DNA of 32,000 bases from Fastidiosibacter lacustris (GTDB lineage: Bacteria; Pseudomonadota; Gammaproteobacteria; Francisellales; Francisellaceae). Made by a program: the position numbers. Below, piece after piece: positions 21,001-27,000 of this stretch. Numbering within the stretch: position 1 is the stretch's first letter; each line of letters opens with the position of its first letter. The stretch lies in assembly GCF_003428155.1 (NCBI RefSeq), contig NZ_QLIR01000007.1, positions 57,534 to 89,533 on the forward strand, given 5' to 3'.

Positions 21001-24000
21001 TAAACCAATATCCATCATGATACTCAATGCACTTTTTAGATTATGCTGTTGATTAAACAAATGTAAAAACTGCATTTGTAATGCTTGATGAGTAACGAAA
21101 TTACGCTTATCCATAGCTTTAATAAGGCGCATGTTGTTACGTAGAATATTTCCATCCAATGCTTTAATCTGTGGATACTGACAAAAATAGCTAAAAGGTT
21201 CGATTAACTCAACTTCTCTTTCAGGATAGTTTATGCTTCTGTGTTTTAAAATGCCGTTATCAATCCGAAATTGCTCATTTAGCTGTGTATCGTTATTCTT
21301 AGCATATTGCGCAATCAATTCACCAAAAATAATACGATTGATCAGCTTAACGTGACGAATGCTGTTGTAATAATGCTGCATAAACTGCTCAATAGCTTTG
21401 TTGGTTTTTTTATGTTTAAAGCCGAAAAAGTGCGCAACCAGGAGTTGTTTATCAAGTAAAAGCGTGTTTTGCTCACGCTGATAGAGAATATGCAAATAAA
21501 AACGGATTGCTGAAAGCAATCGATGTGCTTTTGTTAGTGCATTTAGCTCATCTTGAGTAATATAGTTTTGCTCAACAAAGTAGCGCAAGGTTGCCATTGG
21601 ATGGGTATAAAGCAATATCCAGTGAATACTTTGTAAATAACGTAAATTACCAATTGTATTTTTTATATCTGGTTGCTGATTGATTGGGTATTTATCATCA
21701 CGTGCCCATTGTTCTTGATATTTTTTAGTGATGAAATCAGGAGCAGCTGGTAAATTTTCTTTAAGATCCACTTGCTGTTTAAATTGTTGAAATAAATCAA
21801 AGTCTCCACATAGAAAACGTGCATCTAAAATTGCTGTCAATAAATTCAAATCATTTTGCACATATTTAAATAAACTTATCAATGTATGTGTTGAATAGCC
21901 AATCTTAAGTGGCAAATCATGGAGTTCTTGAATAAAGTTAATAAGCTTTAAATCGTTTAATGCTTCATCACTTTTTGCCAAAAATAATAAATCCAAATCC
22001 GAAAAAAGCGCTCTATCTTGGCGACCATAACCACCAATGGCAATAACGGCGATGGCTGTCAAATTTGGATAATACTGAAGGATAAGCTTATCAATGCTTT
22101 TATTGTAAAGCAGTAAGGTTTTATAAATCGAGTGCTTTTTCTTTAAAAACTGTTGACTGACATCATCAATAATGGCTTGACATGCTTGTTTTAACATTTT
22201 GCTTTAGGCACTTATGGTCGATATGTACCATAAATGTAACACGTTAAATAGCAACCTTGAACTAAAGATTTTCATAGGTTCAATATTATAGCACTTATAG
22301 ATTAGTAAATATACTTACATTCTTAGCTACTCTAAATTTCCGTCACTTCTTCAGTTTCTACAGCCAAAAACTCACACATATTATCAAATTTATGTTTAAG
22401 TGATGTAAATGTATCTGATTTAACGATAACTTTTGCTGCAATATCTCTTAGGTTTCGTGAGGTCGGAAGCAGATCACCAACTTTTACTAAATGATCAATC
22501 TTATGCTCAGCTACATGGGAAGGGACATTTAATTTCGTCACACGCCCTTTTTGATAAGGTAGAATCCCGCTAAAACAATAATGTTTTACCTCTTGTGCAT
22601 AATCCATATCAGTAAAGTTTGTTAATAACTCCAAATTTAATAAATTAACACCAAATGCCTCTTTATACATAGGTACAATAATGGCACCTGGTGTCCTGGC
22701 TGCAACCTCCAAAAAGACAACTTCGCCCGCCTGAGTGATAAAAAATTCTAAATGCGCTGCGCCATCTGAGTATGAAAATACTTTCATAACGGTATCGGAC
22801 AGTGATTTCCCCAAGGCAAATTCTTTTGAATCCTCAGGAAGCGGCAAACTCAAAAGCGCTTTCCCATCTCTAAACTGACAGTTCGGCACACTGTATTGGC
22901 AACATACTTGGAACACAGCTTCGCCATTCTTGTAAATGCTATCAATATGATACAATGTCCCAGATATATATTCTTCAACTTCGTAGTGTGTAAGATTTTG
23001 AATTAAGCTTAATGCTTCAAAAAACTGCTCTTTACTATGTATTACACTAACTCCATTTGACCCAAAATCCGCTAGTGGTTTGATGACAAAAATATCCCCA
23101 ACCATGCTAGTGATGCGCTGATAGCTTTTTTCTATATCACTATTGTCGATTAAATCTGATGCCTGAAAGAATCTTGGCACTCTAACATGATGCTCATCAA
23201 GCTTCTGTTTCATCTTAACTTTATTTCTAAATAATTCAGCCTCCTCTGGCTTTAAACCTTGGACACCATACTTTGCTCTTAACTGAGCTACTGGTAATAA
23301 ATAGTCTTCTGATAAGCACACAAACCTAACATCATTGCGATTATATTGTTTTAGTATGTTTTCTAACTCAAACTCAATATCACTATAATTTAGATATTCC
23401 GAAGCAATATTTTTGCTGGATAGAATTTTTATATTCTCATGTGCAAAACGATTTCGTGTCAACGCCAATTCATTTATTGAAACCACAAAAACATAATCAA
23501 GGTCTAGCTTCCTATTGATTTCATCAAGTTCATATGACTGTAATTTTGTATAAGTATTGAAAAAAACAGCTAATTTTCTCATCTTTTCAGTATCCTTTTA
23601 TAGAGTTTAACAAAATAAAACAAAACGCGCATAGGCAGCCAACTGTCAAGCATAGGCTCCATAGTAATGATGGGGAAATAACGTATAGTTTTGTGCCTAC
23701 AAGTGGAGCAACAAACCCTGCTGCAGAAAAGCTTAACTGATAAATGCCAATGGTATTTCCTTTCTTGTATGGGCTGGACCTTAACATGTAAGGCAACAGC
23801 GCAGGAAATAATATCATTTCACCAAATGTCCATAATACACACAGCAGTAACGCGATGTATATATTGCTAATCAAAAGCGTCAAGCCGATTCCAAAAGATA
23901 ATAACAAAGCACCTACAAAGCAAGTTGTAGATAACGTTTTTTTGTCAAAAAAATGACCTACTGGAATTTGGCATACGACAATTATTATCCCGCTAAACGC

Positions 24001-27000
24001 AAATATCAGTGAAACATCCGCAGCAGAAAATAGCCCATGACTGCTTAAAAAAATTGGATAGGTTGTTTGATTTTGATTAAAAATTATCATCATCACGAGC
24101 AACAGCAGATTTAGAAATACGAAAGCAAACAATCCGCTATGTTTTTGAGTCTGAACAGAACCATTTGATGCTTTTGGTGCTTTACACGGAGGAAAGCCCA
24201 ATGAGTAACCAATATTTAAAGCTACTCGCCTGTACGAAAGCAAGGACATTTCCTTGATAACATGTTTATACTCTAAAAGTGCTATGATAGATGAAGGACG
24301 AAAACCACTATTAAAAAAACCAATGGCAAACAGAATAAAGCAAAAACCAAGTATATGAGACTGAAATGGGAGTAATATAAGCGATATTACATTACCAAGT
24401 AAGGAGATGATAATGATAGATTTAGCTGAAAATATGTCCGAACATATGCCTCCCAAGTACCCTCCAATAACCGAGCCTATGCCAAAGCACGAAATCATGA
24501 TACCAATGCTGTCTGTGCTGTAGCCATAATCATGAAAGTAAAGCGTTCCCACAATAGTGACTAATTGGATCATTGCATTGAAAAAAATCAATGTTAATAA
24601 TAGGTATATCTGTTTAGGTAACCCTAACAAACAATTAACCATTTTACGCACAGCATGCATGATTAAATACTCTATGATTTTCTTTGCCTAGTCTTCGCAT
24701 ACCCCAAATGGTGCAGCGATAATTTCATCTGTGGGAAGATGATCAAAAACAAAATATGGACTTGCGCGATCAATCGATTTTTGATTAGCAAATATATCTA
24801 ATAATCGGTCTGGAAAATTTTGATACGCTGTTTTTCTCAATTGTTGAATATAGTTACAGTTTCCTGATGGATCATAGCTTAAACCCTCTAGTGATTGTTT
24901 AAGGATAGTTCTTTCTTCACTTAATAAAATAATTTTATTTTCCATAGTTGTACAACCTCATAAATTACTGGTCTTAAGCACTTTTAATTGCCTCCTATCG
25001 AATAAACATATATATAAGAATAATTGATATGATGCGCTTTAAAAGCTAAAAGAAACTGTATCTATAGTCAAGGAATTTTGTAAAAATTTTGAATTTTATG
25101 TATCTAATTATTTTTAATCATATCAAATAACAATATTCATTTTACACTCAAAAAAACTCAAGCAAATGTGATAAAAACAATTTACGTACACGAAGAAAAA
25201 TATGCATATGTTAATTCATGACCAACAACAGGGTAAAGCACACCCGTCAAAGCAATTGATGGTCCAAATGGAATTAAAAAATGTTTTTTGCGCTTGATAA
25301 GACTCAATAAAAGCGCAAACAAAATACCTAAAACAGCACTCACCAAAACAATAAACAATAAGCTTTGAAAGCCAAACCAAGCCCCTAAGGCTGCCATTAA
25401 TTTAAAGTCACCGTAACCTAGACCTTCTTTTTGCGTGATAATTTTAAAAATCCAAAATGTAAACCACAATGTCCCATAACCAATAGCCGCACCCCACAAT
25501 GAAAAAACAGGAGTTGTAAATACATAAAAACTATTTGCTAATAATCCAATCCACAGTAAAGGTAAAGTTAAAACATCAGGTAATATAAAGTGTTTAAGGT
25601 CAATTACAGTAAGCACAATTAGAAAAAAACATAATATTGAAAGCAATAAACTAAAGGCATTTATACCAAAATGCCACATAATGAAGAATACTAAAGCGCC
25701 ACTTAATATTTCTATAGTTGGATAGGTGAAAGATATTTTATAATGGCAAAAGCGACATTTACCACGTAAAAAAATAAAACTTAAAATCGGGATGTTATGC
25801 CACGCTTTTAATGGTGTATGGCAATGTGGACAAGCTGAGCGTCGATTTAGGTTTTCTGTTGGGTGATTTTCAGCGTTTGGTACTTTGATCCCCAAAACTT
25901 GCGATGCTTCCTGATGGTATTGTTCATCAAGCACCTTAGGTAAACGCAAAATAACCACATTTAAAAAACTACCAATACAAATAGCAACTATCGTAATTAT
26001 TATAAGCATGATCGGGGAGTTTGCCAAAAAGTCCATGATTTTCTAATCCAGTTTGTTTTGCTTAAGTGTACTCGAAAATAAAGAATATGAACTATTTTTT
26101 GTTATGATATACGATAATTTTTTAGTAAAAACCAGACTTTTCATTTATCTGTATAAGTTTTTCATAGCAACTAAAACGTGTTATGATCTGAGCTTAAGTC
26201 AAATAATAAAAATCAGGCGCATGCAACCTTTTTCATTGTCTAAGTTACTTACGAACGTCCAAACAAAAGATCGCAGTAAACTCATTACATCTTTTAATCA
26301 TTTATCCAAACGTAATGACGTAAATTATGAGGGTGATACATGGTCAAAGCTTATTAATGAAGTGAAGTATTCAGCACAAAAAGTACAAGCACGTATGGCA
26401 CGCATACCCAAAATAAACTACCCAGATTTGCCCGTTAGTCAGCGTGTGACTGAAATTAAAAAGATCATTAACGATCATCAAGTTGTGATAGTTGCGGGTG
26501 AAACGGGTTCAGGCAAATCAACCCAACTGCCTAAAATATGCTTAGATTTAGGACTTGGAGCAAAAGGTTTAATTGGGCACACTCAGCCAAGGCGGCTTGC
26601 TGCACGCTCACTTGCCAAACGCTTAAGTGATGAAACTCAGATGACTATTGGGGAAGGTATTGGTTTTAAAATTCGTTTTAGTGATCAAACCAATGAAAAT
26701 ACTTTTATTAAGGTGATGACTGACGGAGTTTTATTAGCCGAAATTCAAAATGATAAATATCTGTCACAATATGAAGTTATTATTATTGATGAAGCCCATG
26801 AACGCAGTTTAAATATTGATTTTTTACTTGGACACATTTATCAAATTTTGAATAAACGACCTGATTTAAAACTTATTATTACTTCGGCAACCATTGATCA
26901 AGAGCGTTTTTCCAAACACTTTAATGCACCTATTATTGAAGTTTCTGGGCGGACTTATCCAGTTGAGATTCGCTATCAAGATCCATTGGAGTTTAATAAT

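Follow-up and report, generated by a model that had tools for sequence, protein, structure and literature searches.

Three closely packed minus-strand open reading frames (ORFs) lie between pilD and glnD in the genome of Fastidiosibacter lacustris, encoding an 85-aa protein, a transporter of the major facilitator superfamily (MFS) and an ATP-grasp ligase (Table 1). Our analysis indicates that this module is likely a pseudogenised relic of a compact hydroxylase–MFS–ligase cassette, two of whose three genes are broken. The module was studied within a 32,000-nt stretch of contig NZ_QLIR01000007.1 (positions 57,534 to 89,533; hereafter the window) and compared with related loci in other genomes, designated by L and a number, among them that of the sister strain 'Ca. 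Nebulobacter yamunensis', an endosymbiont (L033; accession JAMBMW000000000). An earlier note on this DNA, made from the sequence alone, had seen in the trio the logic of a dipeptide locus. The hydroxylase–MFS–ligase logic was found to recur elsewhere, but a live biosynthetic module in F. lacustris was not supported.

The identity of the 85-aa ORF was determined by comparison with intact relatives. It had no Pfam match of its own, and its residues 3–80 matched the N-terminus of an intact 336-aa protein with 39% identity (BLASTP, 3e-19; profile match 5.5e-15). That protein is encoded just upstream of an MFS–ligase pair in a metagenomic homolog locus (L005). A profile built from 15 members of the family matched AsnO over its full length (2.3e-26), together with OrfP (9e-19), KDO1 (3e-18), clavaminate synthase (1e-14) and VioC (1e-12), and the HxE...H triad and the RWxQR arginines were invariant in the intact cassette hydroxylases. 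This confirms the earlier view of the ORF as the N-terminus of an AsnO/VioC/KDO-type hydroxylase without its catalytic core. It corresponds to residues 1–81 of a hydroxylase of ~336 aa, joined to 'GVCED*'; the family's iron triad starts only at residue 142, and the ORF has neither the HxE...H iron site nor the arginines for 2-oxoglutarate (2OG) and substrate. The simplest reading of the alignment is that it arose by an in-frame internal deletion of ~250 codons, which would have removed the whole catalytic core. The terminal 'CED*' is similar to the acidic ends of intact family members ('CHE*', 'QDD*' and 'YYD*'), a likeness that is suggestive only. In L005, a 70-aa ORF matching hydroxylase residues 168–213 (positions 5061–5270) lies just upstream of the intact gene as a duplicated fragment.

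The ORF had also been proposed to encode a ribosomal graspetide-like precursor cross-linked by the ATP-grasp enzyme, a proposal that draws on its acidic, T/D/E-rich C-terminus and on the nearness of the ATP-grasp gene. The acidic tail HLPTDEIIAAPF is, however, the conserved NLPxDxIxxxPF segment of the hydroxylase itself, within the stretch of residues 3–80 that is homologous to full-length hydroxylases. Moreover, the closest folds of the ligase are ligases of free amino acids, and in the sister strain a repeat resembling an insertion sequence (IS) abuts codon ~30 of the ORF. No standalone short forms of the hydroxylase family were present among the 120 hits listed of 212; the shortest listed relatives, of 259 and 284 aa, were on short contigs, the former near a contig end. 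A precursor peptide is therefore rejected as extremely improbable, and the ORF is treated below as a hydroxylase remnant.

The second lesion lies in the MFS gene. The encoded protein (PF07690 at 3.6e-23) is shorter than its homologs and its counterpart in the conspecific strain, which have 381–390 aa. The window gene lacks 108 nt (36 codons) that are kept in L033, where the protein has its full 390 aa; profile positions 155–183 are missing from the window protein, and the gap is seen against all homologs. The lost peptide, GASVFGFLYDIKNMLPFIVMSAILTLNLIIACFLSS, comprises the end of predicted transmembrane helix 5, the following loop and all of helix 6, and the hydropathy peak at 168–186 of the intact protein is absent. 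With these 36 residues deleted, the window protein does not have the 12 helices of two six-helix bundles. In the intact allele, the 108-nt segment is flanked by an imperfect 8-nt direct repeat, TCAT[T/C]GGG, as expected for a slippage deletion.

The comparison of the two strains was used to order these lesions. F. lacustris and 'Ca. Nebulobacter yamunensis' have an average nucleotide identity of 99.38%, and 191 and 129 pseudogenes were predicted in their genomes, of which 79 are common to both (PMC9837558); the cassette genes are not mentioned in the supplementary tables of that study. Over 10 kb, the L033 contig and the window share 99.5% identity. Both strains have the very same hydroxylase deletion junction, and this deletion therefore predates their split. 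The ligase gene of L033 carries a 1-nt deletion near codon 55 and a change of L193 to a stop codon, whereas the window ligase is intact. On this order of events, the hydroxylase gene lost ~250 codons before the free-living and endosymbiotic strains separated, and the MFS gene then lost 36 codons in F. lacustris. One free-living strain and one obligate ciliate endosymbiont, with different lesions on top of a shared one, thus provide a clear order of decay events.

The substitutions between the strains show the same trend. The flanking core genes (6.4 kb) differed at nine positions, none nonsynonymous (N) and nine synonymous (S), while the module (2.5 kb) had 18 substitutions, 9 N : 9 S (Fisher p=0.012 for N:S; p=3e-5 for density). 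For the ligase alone the ratio was 6 N : 1 S. This pattern agrees with decay and relaxed constraint on the module. Of the options left open for the mini-ORF by the earlier note, that of a decaying module is the one that stood, with the MFS gene internally deleted as well and the sister-strain ligase broken. Separately, the L033 contig ends in perfect, IS-like inverted repeats of ~120 nt (1–122 and 10466–10587), whose sites equal window positions 24855/24856 and ~14611. The repeat is absent from the window, and one copy interrupts the L033 hydroxylase remnant at codon ~30. A Pfam scan of the contig-end peptide ...KRFKIIADKYRNRRKRFGLRFNLITGIYNFELTN gave no match.

Table 1. Features of the module and its boundaries, in coordinates of the 32,000-nt window
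Feature	Position	Strand	Description
Ligase gene	22332-23582	minus	416 aa; L-amino-acid-ligase-type ATP-grasp; intact in F. lacustris
MFS transporter gene	23587-24660	minus	357 aa; PF07690; 108-nt in-frame deletion
Hydroxylase remnant ORF	24688-24945	minus	85 aa; N-terminus of a clavaminate-synthase-like (CSL) Fe(II)/2OG amino-acid hydroxylase
Approximate hydroxylase deletion junction, codons ~80-85	24691-24708	minus	From alignment to the intact family
MFS 108-nt deletion junction	24197-24208	minus	From DNA comparison with L033
AT-rich leader between pilD and cassette	24946-25181	minus	236 nt; 23.7% GC; presumed promoter region
Spacer between ligase gene and glnD	22198-22331	minus	134 nt; 29% GC
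pilD, prepilin peptidase	25182-26036	minus	Upstream insertion boundary; PF06750 and PF01478
glnD, PII uridylyltransferase	19645-22197	minus	Downstream insertion boundary; TIGR01693 at 1.8e-148

The trio is not confined to F. lacustris. It had been called an orphan, and a co-occurrence search found the same trio in other genomes, intact in about 7 unrelated low-GC lineages and degraded in several more (GC of the cassette loci 0.32–0.40). The order and strand hydroxylase–MFS–ligase, with tight or overlapping genes, were shared by two related metagenome contigs (L005/L006), a TARA contig (L008), a Deianiraeaceae metagenome-assembled genome (MAG; L011), a Logan assembly (L031) and three further assemblies (L040-42), the last with an inserted 2-hydroxyacid dehydrogenase gene and an EamA gene after the trio. 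Intact cassettes run from 5324 to 8661 in L005, from 7857 to 11170 in L011 and from 10001 to 13287 in L031. The hydroxylase gene is divergently oriented in the trio of a Thiotrichales MAG (L012), and one lineage (L001-L004) has only the MFS–ligase pair without a hydroxylase. Degraded forms include a split MFS gene (L002), a split hydroxylase gene (L013), a locus with all three genes as fragments (L025) and one with only the C-terminal half of the ligase left (L017). Apart from the cassette itself, no synteny was shared between the window and 29 related loci.

Two further features were noted around the intact cassettes. Transfer RNA genes adjoin the cassette upstream in L031 (9681–9767) and downstream in L005 (8927–8989, a weak match), an adjacency compatible with island-like integration. 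A D-2-hydroxyacid dehydrogenase is an optional extra member (L040, 3162–4115; L018, 12060–13043), which suggests that the hydroxylated amino acid is oxidised once more.

More distant relatives of the ligase were also found beside oxidases and transporters. In a Coxiellaceae MAG (L014) the relative lies with an MFS gene and a PF10014 dioxygenase, and in Pseudoalteromonas rubra (L018) two L-amino-acid ligases (Lals) lie with an MFS gene, a PF10014 dioxygenase and a 2-hydroxyacid dehydrogenase. The neighbours are a flavin N-hydroxylase-like enzyme and EamA in Vibrio mimicus (L016); a flavoprotein, an MFS protein and an N-acetyltransferase on a Pantoea stewartii plasmid; and an HDO-like enzyme, an aminotransferase, an oxidoreductase and a TauD dioxygenase on a Burkholderia glumae plasmid. 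In Fluoribacter gormanii (L030, 7001–13169), a larger related cluster forms an island beside an integrase. Its CSL hydroxylase shares 42% identity with the cassette type and is accompanied by a flavin reductase, an Asp/Glu racemase, a 453-aa protein, a canonical Lal with LAL_C2 and an MFS transporter; the same chromosome encodes another, paralogous hydroxylase. The coupling of amino-acid oxidation, ligation and transport is robust, because the distant ligase relatives and F. gormanii keep the arrangement, the distant relatives with other oxidases. A route in which Asp is ligated and fumarate then eliminated was considered, given an ADSL-like lyase upstream of the L001 MFS–ligase pair and a match to PRK02186 (ATP-grasp plus argininosuccinate lyase). 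It was set aside: a gap of 219 nt separates the lyase gene from the pair, its product resembles an ordinary PurB, and none of the other loci has it.

The position of the module is that of an insertion. In Facilibium subflavum, pilD directly abuts and overlaps glnD on the same strand, which is how the window would look if the module were taken out. The module thus represents an insertion between the two genes, and horizontal acquisition of the cassette in the Fastidiosibacter lineage forms part of the relic interpretation that we regard as likely. Flanking direct or inverted repeats were sought as insertion scars, and only short matches at chance level were found. The window GlnD is 100% identical to that of F. 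lacustris, followed by those of Cysteiniphilum (~60%), Facilibium (47%) and Fangia.

The layout of the locus was as first described, with the three minus-strand ORFs, the two outer spacers (Table 1) and the inner spacers of 4 nt (ligase/MFS) and 27 nt (MFS/85-aa ORF) all recovered. The leader upstream of the cassette, said to be very AT-rich, proved to be the most AT-rich intergenic region of the window. The impression that the module itself is more AT-rich than its neighbours did not survive measurement. The GC contents of the ligase (0.352), MFS (0.365) and hydroxylase remnant (0.326) genes match those of glnD (0.338) and pilD (0.342), as do the GC contents at third codon positions, and the module thus bears no compositional sign of foreign origin. 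Promoter-like and terminator-like matches in the region were no commoner than in shuffled sequence, and no terminator-like site was detected in the spacer between the ligase gene and glnD. No riboswitch or other Rfam element was found in the leader or in the intact loci.

The third gene of the trio encodes a protein with a PF13535 match (1.6e-11), whose best sequence matches in the PDB were the L-amino-acid ligases 4wd3 (RizA, 4.6e-14) and 3vot (BL00235). An AlphaFold 2 model (pLDDT 88.7, pTM 0.86) was compared with known structures using Foldseek. The top matches (TM-scores 0.70–0.74) included RizA (1e-25, 0.72), BL00235 and BacD/YwfE (0.73–0.74), while biotin carboxylases and PurD reached at most 0.62. 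There were 608 PDB matches at E<=1e-3, and all of those listed were ATP-grasp enzymes. The ligase keeps all 59 family-invariant columns, and its number of unique changes at conserved sites (5, compared with 1–14 in homologs) is not in excess. A Pfam scan did not detect LAL_C2 (PF18603). In bits against cut-off, curated models scored 23.6/318 (PurK), 26.5/246 (Ddl), 13.1/627 (AccC) and 17.7/314 (RimK-related), and the Lal-type models 18.6/850 (BacD equivalog) and 30/248 (PylC). Because the PurK, Ddl, AccC, RimK-like and BacD scores are far below their cut-offs, the protein is Lal-like and, as judged from these profiles and the model, a member of no curated Lal subfamily. Its predicted activity is the ATP-dependent ligation of unprotected amino acids.

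Classification by hidden Markov models and by structure therefore upheld the original call of an L-amino-acid-ligase-type enzyme over PurK, Ddl or RimK. A divergent housekeeping enzyme (a variant of PurK, PurT, Ddl, RimK or biotin carboxylase) with fortuitous neighbours could account for the weak NCBIfam matches to Ddl, PurK and AccC and for the presence of biotin carboxylases among the Foldseek matches. All such matches lie far under the curated cut-offs, however, and Lal structures rank first (TM-scores of 0.72–0.74 as opposed to <=0.62). The gene is also linked to MFS and amino-acid oxidase genes in many unrelated genomes, and it is broken in L033. A housekeeping identity was rejected on the curated cut-offs and gene context, and its probability is close to nil.

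The Lal-like family to which the enzyme belongs is large. An exact look-up of the window ligase sequence returned no record, and a word-indexed search (15 hits) indicated a close clade of about 10 proteins at 33–47% identity. An initial impression from that search that the family is rare was dropped, since an exhaustive profile search gave 841 representative clusters at E<=1e-30 and only the tight clade is small. The window ligase forms part of a separate clade inside this broad Lal-like family. Some members of the broad family lie within very large proteins (847–2122 aa, with two matched stretches: P0256, P0260, P0261, P0264 and P0265), which suggests multi-domain fusions of the ATP-grasp type of this ligase.

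To predict the substrate of the intact cassettes, the hydroxylase pocket was compared with published classes. Bastard et al. (2018) defined sub-pocket classes at logo positions P12–P15, in which DXXD denotes basic substrates and PPSD denotes AsnO; an uncharacterised group, G6, has 'PYRA/V' with a conserved Tyr at P16 and was predicted for Glu/Asp by modelling (PMC6224419). The cassette hydroxylases have an invariant P-[Y/H/F]-R-W-R, of which P-[Y/H/F]-R aligns with P-P-S of AsnO; the Ala/Val of their '[A/V]-F-Y' aligns with AsnO D241, and an invariant Tyr follows two residues further. Because the PYR, Ala/Val and Tyr positions align to the AsnO pocket, the cassette hydroxylases carry the G6 signature and are predicted to take acidic amino acids. 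A bacterial hydroxylase of free Asp or Glu is absent from the list of a 2022 review.

From these features we infer the chemistry, substrate, transport direction and role of the intact cassettes, which probably make and export a dipeptide with a hydroxylated amino acid. The hydroxylase would act first, oxidising a free amino acid that its pocket signature suggests to be acidic (Asp or Glu). The Lal-type ligase would then convert a carboxylate to the acyl phosphate and join it to a second amino acid, giving the dipeptide, which the MFS protein would export. The product might act as an antibiotic.

For the intact cassettes, a different product is conceivable, namely a small metallophore or signalling molecule with a hydroxy-carboxylate group in place of an antibiotic-type dipeptide. 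Alternatively, the MFS protein might act in uptake, bringing in a compound for intracellular hydroxylation and ligation. Hydroxy-carboxylate groups are found in many iron chelators, and an Asp or Glu substrate, as expected for a PYRA/V pocket, would give a hydroxy-carboxylate product. The direction of transport is not readable from sequence, and in some variants there is an additional gene for a 2-hydroxyacid dehydrogenase or an EamA exporter. We nevertheless consider this rather unlikely. No metallophore-type receptor, reductase or regulator lies beside the cassettes examined, and the closest analogues, namely bacilysin bacD-bacE, the Hil proposal (PMC3684760) and mangotoxin (PMC13185094), are exported peptide antimetabolites.

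A broader possibility, put forward tentatively, is that the intact cassette is an undescribed pathway independent of non-ribosomal peptide synthetases (NRPSs). A G6-type CSL hydroxylase acting on free Asp/Glu and a new Lal clade would together yield a dipeptide, either an antimetabolite or a metallophore, for export by the MFS protein. Such a cassette would move horizontally among low-GC aquatic bacteria, some of them protist-associated (Deianiraeaceae, Thiotrichales and Fastidiosibacter/Nebulobacter, with a distant MFS–PF10014 dioxygenase–ligase variant in Coxiellaceae), and would be repeatedly lost. If so, the stepwise decay in F. lacustris and 'Ca. Nebulobacter' would be a dated example of the erosion of an accessory pathway at the onset of symbiosis.

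Several observations weigh against this account of the module as the relic of a dipeptide cassette. The MFS changes between the strains are mostly synonymous (2 N : 8 S), which looks like past purifying selection, and their synonymous density is ~5x that of the flanking core genes (8 in 1.07 kb and 9 in 6.4 kb, respectively; p=0.0013). The window ligase is full length with no excess of unique changes, and the ligase alone may have residual activity. The insertion is read from one outgroup, and in Cysteiniphilum and a further relative different genes lie upstream of glnD. For the intact cassettes, product and activity are predicted from the genes, the acidic substrate comes from a published modelling prediction mapped by alignment, and export and import look alike at the sequence level. 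As a separate observation, half of the synonymous MFS differences (window 23887–24271) lie within 100 nt of the 108-nt deletion, and this dense set could be a recombination tract.

The same observations on the ligase bear on whether the module works in a reduced form, in which the intact ligase, by itself or together with the shortened transporter, would make and export an unhydroxylated dipeptide, perhaps as in natural two-gene MFS–ligase loci. The ligase keeps all family-invariant residues without excess unique substitutions, L001-L004 have the MFS–ligase pair without a hydroxylase, and the MFS deletion is in frame. Against this, the deletion takes a transmembrane helix out of the N-domain of the transporter, and the sister-strain ligase has been hit by two independent lesions while its MFS gene is intact. 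Residual ligase or MFS function is unlikely because neither strain keeps the MFS–ligase pair whole. Nonsynonymous changes are enriched in the ligase, and its intactness over so short a divergence is expected by chance. A module that still works in reduced form is accordingly judged improbable, and a pseudogenised relic remains the preferred interpretation.

For F. lacustris itself this finding matters little, as it adds one more pseudogenised accessory locus to a lineage with more than 100 known pseudogenes. The interest lies in the intact cassettes, which pair a hydroxylase group of predicted acidic-amino-acid specificity with an uncharacterised ligase clade and so offer a route to G6-type hydroxylases and a new Lal clade. 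At ~3.4 kb, the three-gene cassette is small enough to synthesise and express, and would make both enzymes, as well as a dipeptide that is probably new, directly accessible to experiment.

The remainder of the window carries ordinary gammaproteobacterial core genes (ubiB, hemF, clpA and hrpA). The mechanically called hrpA ORF opens with a TTG codon 168 nt ahead of the match to the HrpA models (window 26053–26220); translation probably starts near 26221 instead, which would leave a divergent pilD/hrpA intergenic region of ~180 nt. On the plus strand, window 5850–12810 holds a closely spaced array of genes whose products resemble enzymes that modify drugs. One is a 541-aa protein in which a GNAT (AAC(6')-like) domain is fused to a nucleotidyltransferase and DUF4440. 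The others are a RibD_C-like gene, a second GNAT gene, a 137-aa ORF and genes for a GH5 cellulase-like protein, an APH-like kinase and a protein resembling chloramphenicol phosphotransferase; the array is followed by a gene for an AraC/Rob (GyrI-like) regulator.

Among known systems, the bacilysin genes bacD (ywfE)-bacE of Bacillus subtilis resemble the cassette in having a free-standing Lal-type ligase beside an MFS transporter and a non-proteinogenic amino acid supplied by neighbouring genes. The window ligase model superposes on BacD/YwfE with TM-scores of 0.73–0.74, but sequence identity is only 13–14%; the cassette has a single CSL hydroxylase instead of the bacABCFG anticapsin genes, and the window copy is broken. 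RizA (4wd3) and BL00235 (3vot) have the same three-domain ATP-grasp architecture at 15–18% identity, whereas the window ligase has no detected LAL_C2 (PF18603) and belongs to a separate clade. Relative to AsnO, VioC, OrfP and KDO1, the intact cassette hydroxylases keep HxE...H and RWxQR and align with AsnO over the full length, but their pocket motif is PYR(A/V) plus Tyr rather than DXXD (basic substrates) or PPSD (Asn).

Two further systems share the gene logic of the cassette. The Hil operon of Pantoea ananatis combines the dioxygenases HilA and HilB, the PF13535 ligase HilD and the MFS protein HilE (PMC3684760), and was proposed to make a dipeptide antibiotic, the Hil product itself being unproven (PMC3684760). 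The likeness is one of gene makeup. The Hil oxygenases are of PF13640/PF10014 and that of the cassette is of the CSL/TauD type; as in Hil, distant relatives of the window ligase have an MFS gene and a HilB-type dioxygenase (PF10014) as neighbours. The mangotoxin mbo genes likewise direct an NRPS-independent small peptide through free-standing ATP-grasp ligases and an oxidatively modified amino acid, but with a heme-oxygenase-like oxidase, two ligases, a tripeptide product and specific genes that are not shared (PMC13185094). The cassette behind the F. lacustris relic is thus an uncharacterised variant of a known logic, in which an amino acid is modified, ligated and exported.

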